DNA of 64,000 nucleotides from an uncultured Christensenella sp. (lineage in GTDB: Bacteria > Bacillota > Clostridia > Christensenellales > DTU072). Location of the stretch: assembly GCA_964620655.1 (NCBI GenBank), contig CAZUJW010000002.1, forward strand, positions 4,144 to 68,143, in the 5' to 3' direction. Made by a program: the position numbers and the translations under genes. Under the pieces are notes generated by a model. It ran no database searches. It was given only the letters and a program-made list of their open reading frames with translations, and was not told the DNA's origin. Of this stretch, positions 20,477 to 54,000 are shown one piece after another. Position 1 is the first letter of the stretch; each line of letters begins with the position of its first letter.

Positions 20477-20497
20477 AAAATTTTTTATTAAAAAAAC

Positions 20498-20530
20498 AAA
20501 TCCGCGCCAACCGACGCGGATTTATTTTTT
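20498..20530. terminator. Bidirectional Rho-independent terminator (rluA-family gene / 898-aa lipoprotein gene)
   Basis: Stem AAATCCGCG/CGCGGATTT (9 bp) with an 8-nt loop. T-run downstream and A-run upstream. Confidence 0.75.
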
Positions 20531-20552
20531 CTATTCGTTTCCGATAATCTTA

Positions 20553-34367: not shown

Positions 34368-36179
34368 TTATGATATGGTAAATATATAATTGACTTTGTC
34401 TTTTACCGCAATGACGTATCCGCTCTGGAACTTGCCGCCGGTAAGGAAAATATCGTAAACGTCGAGTTTTTCATACTCCGCGTTAAGTAAAATATCCCCC
34501 GCGTAATTTTTCAGCCCCAACTTTCCGTACTGCTCGTAGACGTACACGCCCTGACGGACGTTGACGACGTCGGTTATCGCAACGGCGGTTCCGTCCTTAT
34601 AGATTCTGTAACGTGTTTTGCCGTTTATTTTCTTACTGCCCACCGCATAATCGCCGTAGAAAGGAGAAAGTTCGTCGTACTCGAACGGTACTATAATCTT
34701 TCCGTCGGTATCGACTATTCCGTACTTTATTTCCTTGCTCGAATAGTCTATCTTGCCTGCTACCACGCCCACTCCGTTGTAAATATGGGTAGAATAAGTG
34801 TTTTTCCCTTCCTGCAAGGCTATCTGTTCACGTTTTTCAAGGGTTTTCGTAAAATAATGAACGCTCCCGAAATACTGTTCGTACATAGGGTCGCTCGTTT
34901 CCGTCCCCACCCCGTCGACAAACACGCTCGGCATAAGCATATCGCTAATGTTGACGATATTGGCGTTTGCGTCCATTATACAGAACGTAACTTCGCTCTG
35001 CACGCTGCCGCTGTCGGCGTACGGGAAATAGTAATAGTAAACTATGCTGTAACCTTTCTTGACCATTGCCGACACGTCCATATAAGGAAGAACGTAATCG
35101 TAAATACCCGTGTCTTCGTCGAAGGTAGCCAAGTTGTTGAGATAAGAACTTAACTGCGAATAATAGTCGACGTAGTAAGAATTAGCCACGTTGTCGACGA
35201 TAAGCCATTCTCTGTCCGTCGTGGTCTTGTCTTTCGCATTGTACATATCGCAACGGATATTCGCGTAATAAACGGTAGTAGTTCCGCTCGATAAATCGGT
35301 ATCTTCGTATTCTATATTGTATCCGTCGAACTTTTCCGTCGATTTGAGTCGCGCCGTGCGGGTGAACCAACCATTGCCGATATAGTAGATATTCATCTGA
35401 ATATTGTCGGTATATTGCGAGTCGGTATCTTCGGGATATGCGATATAGGTACCCCTTTCGTCGTAAGTAAGATACCCGTCCGACTGAATTTCTTTCACGT
35501 TATAGAAAAAGGCGTGGTCCTTGTTTTCGGCTACGAGATAGTCGTCGTATATCGAAATCGTGTAATTGTAACTGCACCTTATTTTAAACACTTCCAACAT
35601 TTGCCCCGTGGTCTTGTAGTCGTAAAACGTGGTGAACGTAGCCGTGCTGTAAGGATAAGTTTTCGTACCGGGGCAAGCGACGTAATCTCCCGCGAAAAAG
35701 AACTGATTAAACCCCGAATTATAAACCGTCATAAAGTCGGTAAGGTCGCCCTTGTTTTCTCCGCGGAATTTAATAACCCCTATCGTGGGCGCGTAAGAAG
35801 CGGTGCCGTTGCCGTTGTCGACGACGGCGGGTTTAGTCACTATCGCATAATCGCCACTTATCGAGATGACGGAATTGTAAGTAGGCTTTACCAAAACCCC
35901 TTCCGTGGGAGATGCAATGCCGTAAAGATACGAGTACCCAGACGAAGCGTAATCGTTGACGACGGGTTGTATCGTAATAAAAAGGTCGTTTTCTACGTCG
36001 TAGGAATAAACAGACGTGTCGGGCGAGTCCACGATAAGAGTCTGCTCCGCTTTGGTGAACTGCCCCTGCGACGCAAAATTAACGAAATATGCGTTCTCTT
36101 TTTTCTTGCTGCACCCCGTAAGGACAGCGGCAAGCAAACAAAGAAAAACGATAGTAATTAGTAAAAACCGTCTTTTCAT
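34368..36179 (-). CDS. Putative lipoprotein with C-terminal WG/KWG-like beta repeats
   Basis: Lipobox LTGC. C-terminal units such as KYGIVDTDGKIIVPFEYDEL and GKLGLKNYAGDILLNAEYEKL. No SD upstream; see the leaderless promoter. Confidence 0.6.
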   Translation of the reverse strand: MKRRFLLITIVFLCLLAAVLTGCSKKKENAYFVNFASQGQFTKAEQTLIVDSPDTSVYSYDVENDLFITIQPVVNDYASSGYSYLYGIASPTEGVLVKPTYNSVISISGDYAIVTKPAVVDNGNGTASYAPTIGVIKFRGENKGDLTDFMTVYNSGFNQFFFAGDYVACPGTKTYPYSTATFTTFYDYKTTGQMLEVFKIRCSYNYTISIYDDYLVAENKDHAFFYNVKEIQSDGYLTYDERGTYIAYPEDTDSQYTDNIQMNIYYIGNGWFTRTARLKSTEKFDGYNIEYEDTDLSSGTTTVYYANIRCDMYNAKDKTTTDREWLIVDNVANSYYVDYYSQLSSYLNNLATFDEDTGIYDYVLPYMDVSAMVKKGYSIVYYYYFPYADSGSVQSEVTFCIMDANANIVNISDMLMPSVFVDGVGTETSDPMYEQYFGSVHYFTKTLEKREQIALQEGKNTYSTHIYNGVGVVAGKIDYSSKEIKYGIVDTDGKIIVPFEYDELSPFYGDYAVGSKKINGKTRYRIYKDGTAVAITDVVNVRQGVYVYEQYGKLGLKNYAGDILLNAEYEKLDVYDIFLTGGKFQSGYVIAVKDKVNYIFTIS

Positions 36180-36186
36180 ATTTATT

Positions 36187-36215
36187 ATTGTAGCACTTAA
36201 ACGAGTAATTTACAA
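36187..36215 (-). promoter_or_regulatory. Putative promoter giving a leaderless mRNA for the 603-aa lipoprotein gene
   Basis: On the minus strand: TTGTAA (36215-36210), 17-nt spacer, TACAAT (36192-36187), then exactly 7 nt to the ATG (36179). No Shine-Dalgarno. Confidence 0.5.
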
Positions 36216-36240
36216 GAGAAATGCTTTATACAAAGCTCAT

Positions 36241-36394
36241 AGTGAAGTTTAGAAGGTCGTCGAAGTGAAGTTGCCTTACGGCGGTGAAGTTCCGCCATAG
36301 GCGGAGTGAAGTTGCCTTACGGCAGTGAAGTTATCGCTCTGCGATAGTGAAGTTCGGCTAACGCCGAGTGAAGTTTCGAGTAAAACTCGAAGTT
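36241..36394 (+). repeat. Tandem array of 7 x (A/G)GTGAAGTT, six of them followed by a distinct perfect mini-hairpin
   Basis: Motif starts at 36241, 36264, 36283, 36305, 36324, 36346 and 36367, with a truncated AGTT at 36391. The hairpins are GCC-ttac-GGC (twice), CCGCC-ata-GGCGG, ATCGC-tct-GCGAT, CGGC-taac-GCCG and TCGAG-taaaa-CTCGA. Confidence 0.85.
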
Positions 36395-36829
36395 AAGGAT
36401 ACAAAGAATAAGACGGAGTAGGCTAATAATTCTATTCCGTTTTTGTTTATATGATTAGCTTTTTACTTTCTTTTCGGTGTGAAAAGAAAGTAGCAAAGAA
36501 ACACACGAGCCGCAAGTTGCGAAGCTCGGCTCGACCGAGCACGCTTTCATTTTCACAAGGATAAAGTAGATTTATAATTAAGGGGGCATCGCTCCAAGCC
36601 CCCTTAATAAACCCCTTTCCTCATAAAGTTCCCCCTTATCCGAATTTAACAAACTAAATCTTTCTTAATAAACTTATTACTTGAATAGGCTTTATCGACA
36701 TAGGGATAGAATAATCCGTTTGGGTGGGCGGGTGGGAAATAAAAACCCCGATTACAGATAAAAACGGAATAGAACTACCATCCTATCCCGACTTTCTCTT
36801 TTTTCCGCAACTCAAAACCATCGGTTTTG
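36395..36829. other. ORF-free, highly self-complementary core (candidate structured RNA/long leader or MITE-like element); strand unknown
   Basis: No ORF of 60 aa or more in any frame between 36253 and 36912. 14-bp perfect long-range complement (36431-36444 / 36760-36773) with degenerate extension. 12-bp and 11-bp local hairpins. G4 motif. Confidence 0.35.
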
Positions 36830-36857
36830 AACTTCACTGCCGTTAGGCAACTTCACT
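36830..36857 (-). repeat. Two inverted copies of the AGTGAAGTT + GCC-taac-GGC unit
   Basis: The plus strand reads AACTTCACT-GCCgttaGGC-AACTTCACT (36830-36857), preceded by the hairpin AAAACC-atc-GGTTTT (36814-36828). Confidence 0.8.
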
Positions 36858-37050
36858 CAAAGCGGTAAATTCGTTCGGCTTTGCCGAAAAAGGATAGAAA
36901 TATATATATAATTTGTTGCGGCGGCGTGTAAAGGCTTCGAGGTTTGAGATGATTTTTGCCAAATTTCGAGCGAAGTCGTACCGTCGTACGGCGAGTGAGA
37001 ATTTGACAAAACGCACAAAAATTCTAATTATTTTTATCCTTGTTTATATA

Positions 37051-41334: not shown

Positions 41335-41340
41335 GAAAGT

Positions 41341-41583
41341 ACCTGAGGTGCTCGTATACTGCAAGCACATTTGGAACCGCAACATTATTATAAGGGATTT
41401 CGGAGTCCGATATACCGGACGTCACGCCCTCGCCGAAAGGTATGGTCAGGGGAAGGCGGAAAGTATGGCAGAAAACCCACCTGCGCAAGCGGGTTTATAT
41501 TACTTGCGGTTACGGCACGCTCGGCAATTTGCTAAAACCGAAAAAAGGTCTACAAAAACACAAATTTTTTGTAGACCTTTTTT
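41341..41583 (+). ncRNA. Candidate ~240-nt small RNA of unknown class
   Basis: Bounded by the orphan promoter and a 14-bp-stem terminator. Contains an internal GNRA-capped hairpin (41479-41494), an 8-bp long-range pair AACCGCAA/TTGCGGTT (41375-41382 / 41504-41511) and other helices. No credible ORF. Confidence 0.35.
41545..41583. terminator. Bidirectional Rho-independent terminator (candidate sRNA / yerC)
   Basis: Stem AAGGTCTACAAAAA/TTTTTGTAGACCTT with a ~7-nt loop. T-runs on both strands. Confidence 0.8.
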
Positions 41584-47820: not shown

Positions 47821-50800
47821 CTAACCGTGTTTCTTTCTCCAAATAATCAATATTACCGCAATTATCGCGGCTGCGCCCGCTACGCTCCCGCCTATTATGA
47901 AATAGAGTGCGTACCCCGACTTTATATCGGAAGTCTGATCTTCGACGACTTTAACGGCGTACCTGCCGCCGAACACCGTCGCTCCCGTACTTATGTTTCT
48001 TATGACGATAACGATTTCTCCTTCGTTGCCGTTTAGTATAAGCTCTTCGTAATAATATCCGTTTACGTATATTCCGTAACTACTCTTATATTCGTCTTTA
48101 AGCGACAATCTGCCGCCGTCTTTCGACACTTCCAACGTATCGCCCTTAAACGTTACGCCGTTCGTATTAAACGTCTCTTCCGTAATGACGACGGGAGTCG
48201 AACCGCCCTGGTACGTCACGTCGAAAATGTAATTGAAAGCTACTTGTTCTCCGAGCGTAACAGTAACCGCCACCGTTTCGGTCTTCGTAAATTCGATATA
48301 GTCTACCGCATTGCCGTTGCGGCAAAGGACGAGTCCGTCGAGTACGGGGGTAAGTCTCATTTTTACCGCGCCGTAAATTATCGTTCTGCCGTCGGGAAGA
48401 AAACTTATATTGTCGGGATTATCGAACGCGAAATCGGCAAGTGTGATTTTCGCCGTCCTGATATTAGCCGAACCGTAAATCGCGTTAAAGTTTCGGTTGT
48501 CGTCGGGGACAAAAGTATATCCGTACGCCGATTGTCCTTCTTTAAGCGCCTGCCCGCCGTCGGGAACGAACCTGCCCGAAACGGAATTGCCGTCAAAAGT
48601 AGCCGTACCGACTATATCCCCTTCGGTAAGAGTATAATCTTCTATAAAAAGCCTTTCCGAATCGGCTACCGTCACGACGGGATTTGCAGCGACTATGGTT
48701 ATTATACAGTTGCCGCTCTGCGTTCTTCCCGTAGGATAGGTTATCGTAACGCCCGCAGTGTACACGCCCGCATTCGTGTGCGCGTTGTTGGAATACACTA
48801 CCGTCACGTCTTCGCTTATACCCGCTATCTCCACTCTTATCTCGCTCCCCGTATAGACGTAAGTAACGTCGTGCCAATAAGAATACGAAAGATAGTCGGG
48901 ATAAGGATTGGGTATTACGGTAATTTTACCTGTTTTCGTCATTTCCGCTTCGTAGTTGTCGAAAGTCGCCGTTACGGTAACGTCGAACGTACTTCCCACG
49001 GGAGCGGTTGCGGCATAAGAAGTGTTTATTCTTATATTCGCCCCTTTAAGACTCGTTACGGTCTTGTTTATATCGTCGCCAGCTTTACCGTAGCAACGGT
49101 AGGACGCGGTGTAACTTTCCCTTTGCCAAACTTCCGCGTCGTCTACTTCTATCGAAAGAGAGGCTTTCTTTACTCTTACGGTAAAGTAATCGTTCGTTAA
49201 TTTATAGTTGACGTTGTCGTAAAGAGAAACCAATATCCCGTACGAACCTACGTCATAGATATCTTCAGCCGTTCCGGATACTTTAATTCCCAAACTAAGG
49301 TCGGAAGCCTTATCGCCGAAAGCAAGCGTCCCTACGTTGTAAGAAAATCTGCCGTTCTGACTGCTGCCGGAATAAACGGCTTCGTAACTTGTAGCGGAAG
49401 TTTCCGTGCCGTCCACTTTCCACACGAGCAAAAGTTCTTTCGGAGTAATCGTTATTTCGTTCTTTCCTTCGGGTACGAAATTGTAATTCGTGGTAAGAAT
49501 TACGTCGTCGGCGGTTACGTTTTGTATCCCGGCATTGCGTCCGGTTTTTACCGTAATCTCAAAAGTTTCGCCCGAATAAACGTAGTTCTTTACCGTAAGG
49601 GTAGTTTCGGTAATTACGTACTTTACGCCGTCTGTTTCCGTATTGCCCGTAGTGCCGTAAACGTAGCTTACCGAGCCTAACGTAAAGGGTATCGTAAGTT
49701 TGTTTACGGTTATATTTACGGTAGGATTGCCGACAGAGTAATCTGTATTCCTTACCGCTATATCTACGAAATAATTCCCGGCGCTTATTATAGACGGTAT
49801 CGACTGACTTAGCGCATTGCGGTAGCCTAACAATATATCGTCCGCCGTCAACTCGTCGTTCACCGCTCCGTCTATCGAAATAATCTCTATCGTAACGCTG
49901 CCGTTTTTTACGTAGTCGTACGTTTGTTCTATATTTACGGTCACGGCTTTTTTCGTAATTTCGAGTTCTGCGTAAGCCGCCGCCGCTTCTTCGTTCTCGC
50001 CGCCGTCGAAAATTATTCCTATCGAATAAACTCCCGCCCTAATAGCTTCGGTCGATACCGAGTTTTGCGTGCATTCCAGTCTTACAGCCGTTCCGTCGGG
50101 CAAACCAGAATAGGAAAAGTTATTTAAGTCAGCTTTATTATTTCCGTCGTAAACGAAAGAATATTTTTCTTCCGCAACGGTAAGGTTATATTTTATTTTC
50201 TTGACGACGTACCGACAAGCGTAGGTATCCGCAAAATAATTTTTCGCCAAATCCCCTTTCGGCGCGACTAACGCTTCGATAAGATATTCGCCGGCGTTCT
50301 TAATTTCCGTAACCGCCGTTCCGCTTTTCGTTATCGTATATTGTACGTCCGCTTCTTCGTCGGTAAAAAAATCTATCTTCTTTTCTACAGCCGTCCCGTC
50401 GTAAGTCTTTTCTCCGCCCGAAAACTCGTCGTTCCTTGACTTCTTTATCGAGACCTTTTCTATCGTAAAAACGCCGTCTTCGTAAATTACGTCGTAGTTA
50501 TTCGGACTATCTTTTGTTATTGTCTTAACCGAATACGTCCCTGCGTCGTAAACGCCCGACACTTCCTTTTCGCCGTCGAGAATTTTGTAAGTAAACTCAG
50601 AGCCGAAAACGCTCGATACCGTTTCTCCGTCAATAAAACCGCTTACCGATACCGCTTCGGTAAGGAAGGCAGCCGTTCCGTACTCTATATTTCCGTCGGG
50701 AGCGACTACGGTAAGAACAGCCTTTTTTATTTCCAACTTCACTTTAAGCGTGAGCGGTATATAGTTTTCGTCTATCGTAAAAGTACCCGTTACGACGTAA

Positions 50801-53800
50801 TCGCCGACCTCCTTATGAACGTTATTTTCGTACGTTGCGGTAACGCCGCCCGTTAAAGTCGCCGTAACAGTCGTTTCCTTTCCGTTGTAAGTTTTTATTA
50901 AACTTCCTTCCGCGCTTCCCGTCGCGCCGTAAAAATCAACGTTATCTACGGGAACTACTATTCTGTTTACTTTAAGTACGCCCGCCGTTACGGTATAGTA
51001 ATAGTCGTCGGCTTCGCCCGTAAAGTTAATAGCATAGTTACCCACCGAATTACCCATGACGTAGTCGGTGGAAAAACCGTTTTTATAGTCGGGAGTAAGG
51101 ACTCCGACAGTCTTGCCGCCGTCGGCGGATACAAGTCCGTCCGTTATCGTAAGGTCGCAACTACTTAAATCGAATTCGGAATTGTAGTAGCAACTGCCGT
51201 CCTTTACCGTAACGAAAAGTTCTTTTTTTTCTACCGTAAGTTTTACGCTTACGGTAATATCGAAATAATTGTCGGAGTCGGAAGAAAATACCGTCGTATA
51301 TTCGTATTCTCCCGCATGCACCGCAGCCGAAACGGTTTTACCGCCTTTCGTCAATACGAATTTCTGCGTAAATCCCATATTTTGCAATACGGAAAAGTTA
51401 TCGGGTTCAGTCGTCGGAAGACTTACTTTTTCTCCCGAGTAAACAGCCGAAAAGTCTGAAAACTCATTTTCCGTAAATTCGGGACTAACCGTGCTTACGG
51501 CCTTGTTTATGGTAAGAGAATAGCTTTCTTCCGCGGCGAGATAATCGGCAGTCCCCGCAAAGCGCGCGGTAAGAACGTAATATCCCGCGTTCTTTATATC
51601 TCCCGTCAAAAGTTCTCCGTTAAAAGTCCATTTATAGACGGTGTTTTCATAAACGTTACCGTTTATATTCGTTATAGTTTCGTTAATTTCGGACTGCTCG
51701 TAGCTTACGTTCTCGTCGTAATAGGAATAATCGAGAACGAAACTTCCCGTAATCACCTTAATAGCGGTCTTGTATTCGGTAAAATCTTTTCTTAAAGACG
51801 GATTGTCTTCCCCTTTGACGTAACCGAAAATCGTATCGAAATCGAACCCCGCTTTCTTTAACGCGACGTAATCGAACGAGTCGACAGAATACTTAACGCC
51901 GTCTTTTATATAGCTCTTTACCGAAGATATTTCAAAACAATAATCGGCTTTATAATTTTCGTCGGCAGAAGAGGTGTAGTTTATCGAATTGCTTATTTTG
52001 CCGGTTCCTTCGGTGTCGAAAACGTTATTCGCCGAACCTTTATTTTCGCATTTATTTACCTTGCCGTCGTTTTTCTTTACGAAAGCGTAGTCTGCTTCCG
52101 CATAATTTACCGAACTTATTATCGCGCCGTCCGCTTCGTTGTTTTCGGCAAAACCGTAAGTATATACGCCGTAAGTTTCCGCATAGGATATGCTACCTTT
52201 GTTATTTTTACTTATTCCGTAATTTCCGCCGTCGTTACGGACGGATACGTAGCTTATGCTGCCGTAATTATTTTCGCAAACGCCGCTATTTCCCGTACTA
52301 CGCAATTTAAGATTAGTTATCGTTCCGCTTAACGTAGTCGTAAGATTTTCGTCGGTAAGACCTATTACGGAATGACCGTTGCCGTTAAGGTTAAGTTTAA
52401 GTTCCGCTATATTAAGAAGATTTCCGCCGTCTTCCGTATTGTTTACCACCACGTCTTTAGTTAAAACGGCGTAGCCGGTCTTCCCGTCGAGAGATTTAAG
52501 TTGTTCTCTCGTCGACACTATGTACGGGTCGGTAGCCGTTCCCGCCCCCGACGGTTCGGATGCGGTTATTTCTTTTTCCGTCGCGCCTTTGCCGTAATCG
52601 GAATAATCGACGTATCCGTCGTTCGTATTTCCCGAAAGAGTAGCGGAAAGACAGGATATAAAACCTACGTCGGTTCCCGTAAGGTTATACGCCGTGTCGA
52701 AAACTCCGTCGGTTTCGCCGCCTATAAGAGCGTAACCCTTTCCGTATATACTGCCCGAATTATAATCGAAACCGTCTATAACGGATATTTTGCTTTCGCC
52801 CGACAGATATATATCGGAATCGAGTGCATAAACTCCGCTTATAAAGGGTTGAATAAATTTAAGTTTTGTCAAATCGGAATAGCTGCTAAGTAAAAACAGC
52901 GTTTCGGCAGTCCCTTGTCCGTCGAGTAAATTTTTTGCCGCCGTCGAAAAGTCGGGAATATCGGTAGTTTCCGAAATCGTTCCGTCGGTGGTAGCGTAAT
53001 ATTTCTTCTCCGTCGTATCTGTCTCTGACGTATCGGTCTCCGTCGTACCTGTCTCTGACGTCTTGATCACACTTACGCTTACGACGGCGTTTACGTTCGT
53101 TACCGTTCCTTCCGCTATGTTGACGGTTATATCCGACGGCATTTTATTGTCGATTACGGCGTACGAGTCGGTCACCGTACCCGTTCCGTTTTTTGCCACG
53201 ACGTAAACGTCTTGCTGTGCCGCCCACTCTTCGCCCATCGTAACAGCAGTGCCCGACGTTGCGCTCTCTGCCGAATGAGTAAACGTCGCCGCCACGACCG
53301 AATTTGAAACGGTACCGGAATTGGAGTAGGATATCCCGGCAAGCCCGTTGCTGCTGTTTTCTTTTGAGACGTTGATAATTATCTTACCGCCGAAATAACA
53401 ACCGTTTATCGTGCCGCTGTTGATACACGCGATACCGGAAAAATACGATTTGAGCAAAGAAGAATTGTAAACGCATAAATTGTCGCAACCTTCCATTGTG
53501 CCTTTATTCGAATAAACCAATCCGGTATGGTAATTATTGCTTGCCGTGTAGGGCGAAAGAGTTCCGGATACCGTCACGTCGATAATGTTACCTTCGTTTA
53601 TCCACGCTATCGCCATTCCCGCTATAGAAACGTTCTTGAAATAAACGTTCTTTACCGTGCCGCTTGCGGCAATAGTGCCGAAAAGTCTGTCTTTTAAGTT
53701 CTTAACTGCATGTCCGCCGCCGTCGAAAACGCCGCAAAATTCGGATAAATAACCATTGGTCGTAACGTACGAAGCGTCCACGTCGCAATTAAGGCGAACG

Positions 53801-54000
53801 GTTTTTCCGGAATAGTTGTACCGGTTCGTTACCGAGACGGAATAAAAATCGGCGAAATCCTTATCGGAATTTATTTCTATAACTTCGTTATCGTAAGAAA
53901 AATCTGCGTAAACAGCGGTATTAACGGCGGTAATTCCGCATAACGAAATAAGCGTCGCCGCCAATATCGTCACTATGCAAAAACCGACTTTTCTTTTCAC
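47821..54000 (-). CDS. Giant (2059 aa) repetitive surface protein with N-terminal signal and C-terminal TM anchor
   Basis: GTG start with AGGGAGAA RBS. The N-terminal third has F.G.FDG.GH.(V/I).(N/G)L motifs typical of beta-helix/GLUG-type adhesins. A long run of Ig-like repeats follows, with recurrent Y(D/S/N)G strands (MBG-type). C-terminal TM helix plus RKKHG. Confidence 0.7.
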   Translation of the reverse strand: MKRKVGFCIVTILAATLISLCGITAVNTAVYADFSYDNEVIEINSDKDFADFYSVSVTNRYNYSGKTVRLNCDVDASYVTTNGYLSEFCGVFDGGGHAVKNLKDRLFGTIAASGTVKNVYFKNVSIAGMAIAWINEGNIIDVTVSGTLSPYTASNNYHTGLVYSNKGTMEGCDNLCVYNSSLLKSYFSGIACINSGTINGCYFGGKIIINVSKENSSNGLAGISYSNSGTVSNSVVAATFTHSAESATSGTAVTMGEEWAAQQDVYVVAKNGTGTVTDSYAVIDNKMPSDITVNIAEGTVTNVNAVVSVSVIKTSETGTTETDTSETDTTEKKYYATTDGTISETTDIPDFSTAAKNLLDGQGTAETLFLLSSYSDLTKLKFIQPFISGVYALDSDIYLSGESKISVIDGFDYNSGSIYGKGYALIGGETDGVFDTAYNLTGTDVGFISCLSATLSGNTNDGYVDYSDYGKGATEKEITASEPSGAGTATDPYIVSTREQLKSLDGKTGYAVLTKDVVVNNTEDGGNLLNIAELKLNLNGNGHSVIGLTDENLTTTLSGTITNLKLRSTGNSGVCENNYGSISYVSVRNDGGNYGISKNNKGSISYAETYGVYTYGFAENNEADGAIISSVNYAEADYAFVKKNDGKVNKCENKGSANNVFDTEGTGKISNSINYTSSADENYKADYCFEISSVKSYIKDGVKYSVDSFDYVALKKAGFDFDTIFGYVKGEDNPSLRKDFTEYKTAIKVITGSFVLDYSYYDENVSYEQSEINETITNINGNVYENTVYKWTFNGELLTGDIKNAGYYVLTARFAGTADYLAAEESYSLTINKAVSTVSPEFTENEFSDFSAVYSGEKVSLPTTEPDNFSVLQNMGFTQKFVLTKGGKTVSAAVHAGEYEYTTVFSSDSDNYFDITVSVKLTVEKKELFVTVKDGSCYYNSEFDLSSCDLTITDGLVSADGGKTVGVLTPDYKNGFSTDYVMGNSVGNYAINFTGEADDYYYTVTAGVLKVNRIVVPVDNVDFYGATGSAEGSLIKTYNGKETTVTATLTGGVTATYENNVHKEVGDYVVTGTFTIDENYIPLTLKVKLEIKKAVLTVVAPDGNIEYGTAAFLTEAVSVSGFIDGETVSSVFGSEFTYKILDGEKEVSGVYDAGTYSVKTITKDSPNNYDVIYEDGVFTIEKVSIKKSRNDEFSGGEKTYDGTAVEKKIDFFTDEEADVQYTITKSGTAVTEIKNAGEYLIEALVAPKGDLAKNYFADTYACRYVVKKIKYNLTVAEEKYSFVYDGNNKADLNNFSYSGLPDGTAVRLECTQNSVSTEAIRAGVYSIGIIFDGGENEEAAAAYAELEITKKAVTVNIEQTYDYVKNGSVTIEIISIDGAVNDELTADDILLGYRNALSQSIPSIISAGNYFVDIAVRNTDYSVGNPTVNITVNKLTIPFTLGSVSYVYGTTGNTETDGVKYVITETTLTVKNYVYSGETFEITVKTGRNAGIQNVTADDVILTTNYNFVPEGKNEITITPKELLLVWKVDGTETSATSYEAVYSGSSQNGRFSYNVGTLAFGDKASDLSLGIKVSGTAEDIYDVGSYGILVSLYDNVNYKLTNDYFTVRVKKASLSIEVDDAEVWQRESYTASYRCYGKAGDDINKTVTSLKGANIRINTSYAATAPVGSTFDVTVTATFDNYEAEMTKTGKITVIPNPYPDYLSYSYWHDVTYVYTGSEIRVEIAGISEDVTVVYSNNAHTNAGVYTAGVTITYPTGRTQSGNCIITIVAANPVVTVADSERLFIEDYTLTEGDIVGTATFDGNSVSGRFVPDGGQALKEGQSAYGYTFVPDDNRNFNAIYGSANIRTAKITLADFAFDNPDNISFLPDGRTIIYGAVKMRLTPVLDGLVLCRNGNAVDYIEFTKTETVAVTVTLGEQVAFNYIFDVTYQGGSTPVVITEETFNTNGVTFKGDTLEVSKDGGRLSLKDEYKSSYGIYVNGYYYEELILNGNEGEIVIVIRNISTGATVFGGRYAVKVVEDQTSDIKSGYALYFIIGGSVAGAAAIIAVILIIWRKKHG

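Follow-up and report, generated by a model that had tools for sequence, protein, structure and literature searches.

The stretch of DNA analyzed here, 64,000 nucleotides from an uncultured Christensenella sp. (contig CAZUJW010000002.1, positions 4,144 to 68,143; below, the window), contains a 925-nt gap between two minus-strand genes, which encode a 1326-aa metallophosphatase and a 603-aa WG-repeat lipoprotein. In this gap sits a repeat array in which a constant 9-mer alternates with short hairpins of changing sequence; the metallophosphatase gene and its terminator lie upstream of the element on the minus strand. Judged by its sequence, the array is a divergent, expanded relative, of a GTGAAGT subtype, of Gut-1 (Rfam RF01706), the hairpin-array repeat of gut and rumen anaerobes. 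The array and what directly follows it comprise three features:

36241 to 36390, plus strand: array of seven units, each unit being the 9-mer (A/G)GTGAAGTT, with the unpaired core GTGAAGT, and then a short hairpin
36391 to 36402, plus strand: terminal variant linker AGTTAAGGATAC, purine-rich and Shine-Dalgarno-like
36410 to 36445, plus strand: hairpin of 13 pairs, 3 of them G·U, and then a U-run, following the seven-unit array

The original prediction had placed seven copies of the 9-mer and a truncated AGTT at positions that we verified exactly: the copies start on the plus strand at 36241, 36264, 36283, 36305, 36324, 36346, and 36367, and the AGTT at 36391 closes the series. Six of the seven copies read AGTGAAGTT and one reads GGTGAAGTT, and they succeed each other with periods of 23, 19, 22, 19, 22, 21, and 24 bp (mean, 21.0 bp, about two helical turns). 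Throughout the window, GTGAAGTT occurs 14 times, against 1.76 occurrences expected and a maximum of 5 in 100 shuffles, and nine of these copies fall within the array's own intergenic region. The prediction that six spacers are perfect mini-hairpins flush with the constant motif was likewise borne out. Their stems of 3, 5, 3, 5, 4, and 6 bp are entirely Watson-Crick and enclose the loops TTAC, ATA, TCT, TAAC, and TAAAA, while the first spacer, TAGAAGGTCGTCGA, is the only one that lacks a flush perfect hairpin. At least four hairpins out of seven were obtained in none of 200,000 draws of random window stretches of the same length and at least six in none of 100,000 shuffles of the array spacers.

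The seven units hold five distinct stem sequences, all of them perfectly paired. Since the stems vary while pairing persists, the structure forms in a single strand, with the linker as its constant recognition feature. The closing T of each 9-mer pairs with the opening A or G of the next one, so that the truly unpaired linker is the heptamer GTGAAGT. Of the idea that the constant 9-mer is a single-stranded recognition element, the constant linker thus stands, but its unpaired part measures 7 nt and not 9. Read on the minus strand, the units become a hairpin plus AACTTCACT, directed at the 603-aa gene. A CRISPR array was considered and rejected: CRISPR repeats of at least 23 nt alternate with unique, nonpalindromic spacers of about 26 to 72 nt, whereas here the repeat is only 7 to 9 nt long and the "spacers" are palindromes of 10 to 15 nt.

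The Rfam model of Gut-1, whose consensus is an iterated GUGAAAU plus hairpin, matched plus-strand positions 36304 to 36379 along its full length (model positions 1 to 77 of 77) with 39.1 bits, giving E values of 5e-6 in a search of 801 nt and 4e-4 in a search of the whole window. This score falls short of the gathering cutoff of 50 bits. The match is the only such locus within the 64 kb, and no Rfam family besides Gut-1 scored at the array. Canonical loci score 54 to 80 bits against the model, and a GTGAAGT-type locus, L284, passes as well (55 bits; L numbers designate loci of the family comparison described below). The statement that the layout matches no system known to its author thus gives way to a sub-threshold relationship with Gut-1, the full members of which share the same unit grammar: variable short hairpins between constant purine-rich heptamers, in the same strand sense and possibly in the same class of habitat. 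Where Gut-1 has at least three hairpins with a same-strand GUGAAAU-type heptamer, the window array has seven GUGAAGU linkers and six flush hairpins, and stem variation with compensatory change is found at the level of the family. The array differs from Gut-1 in its GUGAAGU linker with an obligatory A...U closing pair and in having seven units versus three hairpins. The Gut-1 start motif, CAAYGAAAU or CAACUAAGU, together with its hairpin H0, is absent; a divergent promoter precedes unit 1, and the start of the minus-strand arm consists of degenerate ACGAAUUU units only.

Gut-1 was described in 2010 from human-gut metagenomes only and was judged to be a noncoding RNA, with no function assigned (Weinberg et al. 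2010, PMC2864571). Rfam types it as "Gene; sRNA." In the literature on Gut-1/RF01706 and on the protein family PF05635/TIGR02436, to which we return below, we found only passing mentions beyond the 2010 description. The kind of element found here is known, and what is new is a sub-threshold GUGAAGU variant with 7 + 2 units and a split center. The two-armed architecture and the protein link set out in the following paragraphs appear to be undescribed in the literature searched.

The family comparison covers about 390 loci. Scanning for the motif gave at least 120 matches each in species-representative genomes, in viral contigs, and in metagenomes; hairpin spacers were present, by the same screen, in 42 of the 120 matches listed for genomes, 24 of the 120 for metagenomes, and 10 of the 120 for viral contigs. 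The scan yielded a recurrent element of about 150 nt in Oscillospiraceae, Christensenellaceae, Acutalibacteraceae, other Clostridia, Bacteroidaceae, and Akkermansia. Its 5' end is made of an A-run, a GC hairpin (H0), and a T-run, then CAAC-GAAAT or CAAC-TAAGT; this start motif is followed by a hairpin, three units of GTGAAAT (or GTGAAGT) plus hairpin, a center, and four inverted units. The canonical two-armed element has four forward and four reverse linkers, and the Gut-1 model spans the left arm alone, the published motif being only the left half of the element. The element start (GAAAT-X) is complementary to the center (X'-ATTTC), and the two covary between subtypes. At L285 and L344 the center reads hp-AGTT-g.gga...tatcc-TTAACTTC-hp-ACTTCAC (hp, hairpin). 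A phage origin was rejected, as only two of the 120 listed viral (IMG/VR) matches are real elements, both at tRNA-adjacent provirus edges, and as a core-specific 23-mer had no match in viral contigs.

The linkers fall into three sharply defined subtypes, T-GTGAAAT-A, A-GTGAAGT-T, and TAATGAAG. Within arrays of the GTGAAGT type, the motif is preceded by A in 73 of 78 cases and followed by T in 73 of 78. The third subtype, with forward TAATGAAG and reverse CTTCATTA, is two-armed as well (L393, 1130 to 1500; L394, 1 to 240), and its element fronts a gene for a four-helix-bundle (4HB) protein 85% identical to one from a GTGAAGT-type cassette; this subtype leaves R-T-G-A-A-R as the common linker core. 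The core reads like a start codon plus a Lys codon, and UGA is present in every linker. Complementarity of the linker, at six of seven positions, to the anticodon loop of tRNA-Glu(UUC) and the occurrence of GUGAAAU in the 690 loop of 16S rRNA were considered to be due to chance. Typical arrays have four full linkers and one variant linker; the latter, after the last hairpin, starts with GTG or GTT in 44 of 48 arrays, is then purine-rich (GTGAAGGAAG, GTTGAGGAGG), and often has a duplicate-stem hairpin plus terminator behind it. In two four-unit single arrays (L013, 5812 to 5960; L014, 3400 to 3900, minus strand), the hairpin of the last unit and the next hairpin share their stem sequence, attttgc/gcaaaat and then tttttgc/gcaaaaa, on either side of the GTGAAGGAAG linker and with a U-run behind; such shared stems permit an alternative pairing like that of a terminator and antiterminator.

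Sequence comparison shows that tandem duplication adds and removes units, which compensatory changes then drive apart; L352 and L348 hold recent unit duplications that differ only in loops. The array of L352 (20 to 154, minus strand) has at least seven units, with a three-unit block repeated, and begins after the hpf stop codon; that of L348 (153 to 264) has six units, one stem recurring with different loop bases, and starts right after a stop codon. At L011 (1976 to 3324), in a metagenome-assembled genome (MAG) of an Akkermansia sp., three tandem repeats of about 440 nt, 84 to 90% identical, each hold a Gut-1 array (60 to 67 bits), and a PF05635 gene lies 3 kb off. The genes downstream of 20 arrays were unrelated (ABC transporter, TrmB, DegV, ECF sigma factor, glycosidase, and others), and a cis-regulator of one gene class was thus rejected.

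Beyond the seven-unit array, the gap in the window holds a central region and a second module in the opposite orientation, with the following features:

36452 to 36752, no strand assigned: central ~300 nt between the convergent array and terminator modules, with hairpins at 36464-36492 and 36578-36607
36736 to 36722, minus strand: C-rich box CCCACCCGCCCACCC, within the central ~300 nt
36757 to 36790, minus strand: terminator-like hairpin and U-run, homologous to 36410-36445, ending the minus-strand mini-array
36804 to 36829, minus strand: tail hairpin caaaaccgatggttttg and then terminal linker AGTTGCGGA, near-identical in locus L310
36829 to 36858, minus strand: two inverted AGTGAAGTT units with the hairpin gcctaacggc between them, opposite to the seven-unit array
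36857 to 36887, minus strand: degenerate leading units tcggcaaagccga-ACGAATTT-accgctttga, with homologues in L310 and, inverted, in L243
36905 to 36932, minus strand: possible promoter of the mini-array (TTTACA, 16 nt, TATATA), weak and picked by eye

The promoter consensus scan did not report the last of these candidates. The inverted units form a 29-nt inverted repeat that is 97% complementary to 36304-36332, and a second inverted repeat, of 49 nt, links 36403-36451 with 36753-36801, each of its arms being a hairpin plus T-run that reads inward. The hairpin at 36410 to 36445 looks like an intrinsic terminator closing the seven-unit array in the GUGAAGUU sense. Its minus-strand homologue has two G·U pairs on the minus strand, which are Watson-Crick at the L310 equivalents. 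As the G·U pairs of the terminators are confined to the GUGAAGU-sense strand, these hairpins make sense only as RNA in that sense. The window thus holds two convergent modules about 300 nt apart, each composed of units, a tail hairpin, AGTT plus a purine-rich linker, and a terminator. Seen on the minus strand, AGTTAAGGATAC corresponds to the ...tatccTTAACTTC "center" of canonical two-armed elements, and AGTTgcgga... and ...tatccTTAACTTC of the window match the centers of L285 and L344, being separated here by the terminators and the 300-nt core. By this correspondence, the window locus is equivalent to a two-armed Gut-1 element with its center pushed apart and with arms of two (plus two degenerate) and seven units. 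Within the central ~300 nt no convincing open reading frame (ORF) was found, only unsupported ones of 20 to 40 aa, and its coding potential was dismissed; at least the first ~90 nt past the minus-strand terminator are conserved in L310.

L310 (Ga0256404_1008014, about 230 to 500) carries a homologue of the minus-strand module directly upstream of a divergent gyrB gene. It has four units versus two in the window and shares unit hairpins with it; the additional hairpins, ccgccataggcgg and atcgaatagcgat, correspond to those of units 3 and 5 in the seven-unit array. Differences between the window and L310 are limited to the terminator arm, which makes the direct compensatory test for this locus a thin one. 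At another locus, L297, an S4-domain (yaaA-like) gene has a two-armed element just upstream; this gene and the gyrB of L310 both belong to the usual dnaA-gyrB neighborhood.

On its other side, the seven-unit array adjoins a promoter:

36179 to 36215, minus strand: promoter of the 603-aa WG-repeat lipoprotein gene, a neighbor of the element and not part of it

This promoter is leaderless: 17 nt separate TTGTAA (36215-36210) from a TG-extended TACAAT (36192-36187), and the ATG at 36179 comes 7 nt further on. The array lies 25 to 26 bp upstream of its -35 element, so that both the probable leaderless promoter and the distance of 26 bp reported for it were verified. A link between array and promoter did not hold up, because orthologues without the array retain the promoter. 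With 6 to 7 nt to the ATG and no Shine-Dalgarno sequence, it is conserved in L243, L244, and L247, down to 58% protein identity, and in L244 and L247 it is present and the array absent. The synteny of the metallophosphatase and lipoprotein genes is kept at protein identities of 72%, 64%, and 58%, in contigs where the intergenic regions are arrayless and measure 248, 129, and 87 nt against 925 nt in the window. Since these orthologous gaps have the same promoter and no array, a segment of about 700 nt is lineage-specific and the promoter is independent of it. In L243, a 93% relative, the contig ends in degenerate units adjoining the promoter, with a unit content different from that of the window. 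That the locus might not be conserved in relatives had been put forward as a ground for abandoning the prediction; this holds by half, the array being absent from the orthologues at 72 to 58% and present in L243 and at the unlinked L310. From this distribution, the window array behaves as a mobile or rapidly turning-over repeat and not as a fixed regulatory site. A general promoter-upstream element was rejected as well, since only about half of the two-armed elements have a co-directional gene downstream and the window promoter exists without the array. Homologues of the lipoprotein were found in "Clostridia bacterium" MAGs.

Across the family, the claim that stems differ while their pairing is kept, between units and between homologues, is supported by 226 distinct (nonredundant) hairpins, in which 1223 of 1253 stem pairs are Watson-Crick and the remaining 30 comprise 5 G·T, 12 A·C, and 13 other mismatches. 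Compensatory changes appeared at 23 of the 41 pairs in the RNAalifold consensus of 12 elements, and about 97% of the hairpins were flush with their linker. C-G closes 157 of 189 loops; viewed on the GTGAAR strand, 140 loops have T as their first base and 109 have C as their last, which gives C-GNA-G or GNNA on the complementary strand. Such loops are the signature of hyperstable DNA mini-hairpins that can be extruded by supercoiling. Two ways of choosing the folding strand were discarded: nearest-neighbor energies were about 0.1 kcal/mol apart and thus uninformative, and the asymmetry of G·U versus A·C, 5 versus 12, involved too few pairs. Single arrays starting 13 to 35 nt past a stop codon were co-directional with it, in the GUGAAR sense, in nine cases and opposite in none, and at L248 the array occupies an intercistronic gap, the next ATG lying 3 nt past the last motif. 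Orientation of the gene downstream of two-armed elements was about 50:50.

About one-third of the two-armed elements sit 35 to 65 nt past a same-strand tRNA gene (Arg, Trp, Leu, Tyr, Gly, Asn, Ala, Lys, or Gln), and in L002, L015, L040, L065, L094, and L098 a PF05635/TIGR02436 gene of 115 to 119 aa, encoding the 4HB protein, follows the reverse arm. Two 4HB subfamilies have thousands of close relatives each, mostly on short contigs and across families of Clostridia, with at least 84% identity among the 120 matches listed per query. Conversely, a two-armed array lies directly upstream of every 4HB gene examined (two subfamilies, at least 12 contexts). The order is uniform in all contexts fetched: the 3' end of a tRNA or tmRNA gene (or a CCA-bearing remnant), H0, the two-armed array, and the 4HB gene. 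This cassette of about 600 nt occurs after at least eight different tRNA genes and after tmRNA (L002, L015, L040, L065, L094, L098, and L368 to L394), and homology between the copies runs from H0 through the 4HB stop codon. In GTGAAGT-type cassettes (L386, L002, and L389), 15 nt separate the last motif from the 4HB start codon, and the sole promoter found is that of the tRNA, which makes the element the leader of the 4HB mRNA. In GTGAAAT-type cassettes, the element lies between the bidirectional terminator H0 and the 4HB gene's own promoter. Of solved structures, the nearest to the protein is 2RLD, an uncharacterized protein whose entry comprises five chains. The 4HB protein matched no PHROG or PADLOC family, and clustering of the ORFs around 46 loci revealed no recurrent transposase.

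Upstream of the cassette, islands integrated into the tRNA or tmRNA gene were observed at L373 (2130 to 2510), L378 (2140 to 2340), L389 (1230 to 1510), and L094 (880 to 1260); two have large serine recombinases and one has a helicase, and a 3' remnant of the tRNA or tmRNA, of about 16 nt at L373, is left before H0. At L094, further T-arm-like sequences (ggattcgaa) between the tRNA and its duplicated 3' end may stem from earlier integrations. That a serine-recombinase island had entered the element itself at L378 was discounted, the element being intact and the recombinase ORF just crossing the tRNA remnant and H0.

Taken together, these data led us to a composite proposal, drawn from sequence comparison and held with about even confidence, in which the arrays would act as RNA, the framed heptamers would be docking sites, and an oligomer of the 4HB protein would be their partner. 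Each unit consists of a 7-nt linker with the core R-U-G-A-A-R and of a perfect short hairpin of arbitrary sequence with C-G at the loop. Working as RNA in the GUGAAGU sense, the hairpins would be clamps that hold the heptamers single-stranded and evenly framed, and one transcript would thereby present an oligomeric, sequence-specific binder with two to eight identical docking sites. For this binder, the best candidate is the PF05635 4HB protein, given that its gene directly follows canonical elements and that 2RLD has five chains. The consequence would be titration or autoregulation of the 4HB protein and/or control of RNA processing, read-through, or stability at gene boundaries, and the window copy would be an "orphan" array with no 4HB gene nearby. 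The multisite protein-docking scaffold of the original prediction remains, on present comparisons, the best functional guess.

A wider and more speculative version, which we consider doubtful as a whole, is that Gut-1 arrays and the PF05635 gene form a horizontally spreading cassette of about 600 nt that homes to the 3' side of the tRNA or tmRNA CCA end. The 4HB oligomer would bind the hairpin-framed R-U-G-A-A-R linkers, for autoregulation and/or propagation, and arrays without the gene, including the 7 + 2 units of the window, would be nonautonomous and respond in trans. The cassette would then be related to the intervening sequences of 23S rRNA that bear ORFs. PF05635 is a very abundant 4HB family that includes Avd, a protein of diversity-generating retroelements, and the ORFs of 23S rRNA intervening sequences. 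As with the latter, a small PF05635 ORF accompanies a stable-RNA gene and has inverted repeats that form stems on its flanks; unlike these intervening sequences and Avd, the cassettes lie outside the stable RNA, 3' of tRNA or tmRNA, with no reverse transcriptase and with a 4HB protein that is not basic, and the window has no PF05635 ORF.

Several observations weigh against the composite proposal. The stems show no G·U enrichment, and this near-absence of G·U, together with the C-GNA-G loops, is atypical of an RNA family, fits stable DNA mini-hairpins, and is the main argument for a function in DNA. A consensus scan found no recognizable sigma-70 promoter upstream of the seven-unit array on the plus strand, and the spacer between H0 and the promoter in GTGAAAT-type cassettes may be poorly transcribed. 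By residue count, the 4HB protein is approximately charge-neutral, unlike the basic Avd, and its gene adjoins only about 15% of the arrays from the motif scan. In the 64-kb window itself, tblastn with three 4HB proteins gave no match better than E = 5. The window contains no tRNA either, so that the array lacks both the tRNA or tmRNA plus H0 upstream and the 4HB gene downstream, the position of the latter being taken by the 603-aa WG-repeat lipoprotein gene.

In the DNA-level alternative, which we regard as possible though rather improbable, the palindromes would extrude or fold in single-stranded DNA and the heptamer would be recognized by a recombinase, a nuclease, or a structural protein; the array would be the cis part of a mobile or recombinogenic module, similar to repetitive extragenic palindromic (REP) sequences, bacterial interspersed mosaic elements (BIMEs), or miniature inverted-repeat transposable elements, or else a supercoil-sensitive feature upstream of promoters. 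It is favored by stems that are about 98% Watson-Crick without G·U bias, by the 157 of 189 C-G-closed loops, most of them GNA or GNNA on the AYTTCAC strand, by the dyad architecture of the canonical element, and by the placement of GTGAAAT-type copies between terminator and promoter. It is favored also by the presence or absence of the element at orthologous loci, by near-identical copies within a few kilobases (L050, 95.5%; L109, 96.8%; L069, 99.3%; L033, inverted), by contigs that break at elements (L243 and L310), by a range that extends over Clostridia, Bacteroidales, and Akkermansia, and by the recurrence of one ~600-nt cassette after at least eight tRNA genes and tmRNA; in addition, the arrays of the window and of L310 (gyrB) lie upstream of a divergent promoter. 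Against a function in DNA stand the 9-to-0 polarity of single arrays relative to upstream stop codons, the subtype in which the element is the only leader of the 4HB ORF, the adjoining terminators whose G·U pairs are sensible only in RNA, and the lack of a transposase or integrase consistently nearby, the serine recombinases belonging to the tRNA-integrated islands; a unit length of 18 to 26 bp excludes phased binding to double-stranded DNA. REP/BIME and the BOX elements of Streptococcus pneumoniae resemble the arrays in being modular, structured intergenic repeats with variable module number, alternating orientations, and presence/absence between related genomes; many of them are located directly behind stop codons or in gaps between convergent genes, and they are cotranscribed with their neighbors. 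REPs share one imperfect palindrome per genome, with a 5' GTAG, and are mobilized by a RAYT transposase, whereas in Gut-1-type arrays every stem is different (those of the window being perfect), only the linker (GTGAAGT) is constant, and no RAYT or other transposase is linked. The promoters of the phage N4 virion RNA polymerase are supercoil-extruded d(C-GNA-G) mini-hairpins, which the array hairpins resemble on one strand in their 5- to 7-bp stems, 3-nt GNA loops, and C-G closure; they differ in forming arrays and not single hairpins, in lying on a chromosome, and in having no N4-like polymerase. Sites for a replication, partition, or transcription factor in double-stranded DNA (iterons, a parC-like centromere, or an upstream activating array) are very improbable. 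The mean period of 21.0 bp, about two helical turns, and the position 25 to 26 bp upstream of the -35 element would suit them, but the periods vary too much for helical phasing (19 to 24 bp in the window; 18 to 26 bp family-wide), the palindromic spacers would be unexplained, no rep or par genes are nearby (the neighbors being the metallophosphatase and lipoprotein genes), and the promoter is intact in arrayless orthologues; spacing and orthologue comparison have already largely refuted this explanation.

Two further alternatives stay with RNA. The leading idea of the original prediction, a stand-alone plus-strand small RNA (sRNA) gene at about 36235 to 36450 acting as a CsrB/RsmZ-like sponge, is unlikely. 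It would fit the terminator-like hairpin and U-run with plus-strand G·U pairs after the array, the sevenfold linker, the "Gene; sRNA" type of Rfam, and the noncoding-RNA verdict of the discoverers. Yet no promoter is detectable in the 61 nt from the divergent ATG to the first unit, conservation at the orthologous position is lacking, the genes on either side have unrelated functions, and the family is found mostly inside other transcripts (3' untranslated regions, intercistronic gaps, tRNA trailers, and the 4HB leader). CsrB and RsmZ carry GGA in loops, and the targets of TRAP and HutP are iterated triplets. The arrays resemble all of these in a short motif iterated regularly in one RNA, which suits the capture of an oligomer by avidity, and the 4 + 1 linkers of a typical array would suit a pentamer; they differ in that the motif lies in linkers and not in loops, with no GGA or UAG, and in that most copies are embedded in other transcripts. 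At the window array, the loops have no GGA, and a terminator was found but no promoter. Quite unlikely, too, is a purely structural hairpin stack with no partner, blocking exonucleases or RNA polymerase as an mRNA stabilizer or a bidirectional insulator or terminator at gene boundaries, in the way suggested for REP/BIME, the forward and reverse heptamers of two-armed copies pairing into a ladder of four-way junctions. Placement after stop codons and after highly transcribed tRNA and tmRNA genes agrees with this, as do H0, an A-run/hairpin/T-run bidirectional terminator, and the reverse-strand hairpins, each of which precedes AUUUCAC and is weakly terminator-like. The 4 + 4 linkers with 4 + 3 hairpins fit a ladder exactly, and both RNAfold and RNAalifold pair m0:M4 and m1:M3. 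Such a stack would leave unexplained why the linker is conserved to the nucleotide and why there are three subtypes (T-GTGAAAT-A, A-GTGAAGT-T, and TAATGAAG) with an RTGAAR core, single arrays and the 7-versus-2 arrangement of the window are unable to form a ladder, and ACUUCAC is nearly without a U-tract. A lambda-type nut site, which has a single boxA and one boxB hairpin with a GNRA-like pentaloop in an operon leader, was rejected at this locus, which has seven units, nothing resembling boxA, and loops that read TTAC, ATA, TCT, TAAC, and TAAAA. The nut-like and REP/RAYT-like readings raised in the original prediction, and an iteron reading, thus each fail defining features here.

Some other features of the window were recorded. 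A 6S/SsrS RNA match at 41337 to 41531 on the plus strand (46.6 bits; gathering score, 46.4 bits) runs against the prevailing minus-strand genes, and L121 has a 146-aa ORF called there. A match to the Brucella sRNA BSnc120 at 20478 to 20548 on the minus strand (35.2 bits; gathering score, 114; E = 1.5e-4) is probably spurious. Short tandem repeats lie at 2625 to 2685, with a period of 22 to 23 nt, and at 53014 to 53061, with a period of 15 nt, the latter inside a 2059-aa ORF (47821 to 54000, minus strand).

Gut-1, an orphan since 2010, is now placed in Oscillospiraceae, Christensenellaceae, other Clostridia, Bacteroidaceae, and Akkermansia. The Rfam model covers half of a two-armed element of fixed grammar, and this element is tied to the 3' flanks of tRNA and tmRNA genes and to PF05635. 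Its G·U-free stems, opposite-strand C-GNA-G loops, and codon-like linker make it a good case for asking whether a repeat acts at the level of RNA or of DNA. Since Gut-1 is tied to PF05635, two long-standing unknowns become jointly testable by simple binding and reporter experiments, and the cassette proposal, if true, would provide the first function both for an orphan RNA motif and for an orphan protein family.

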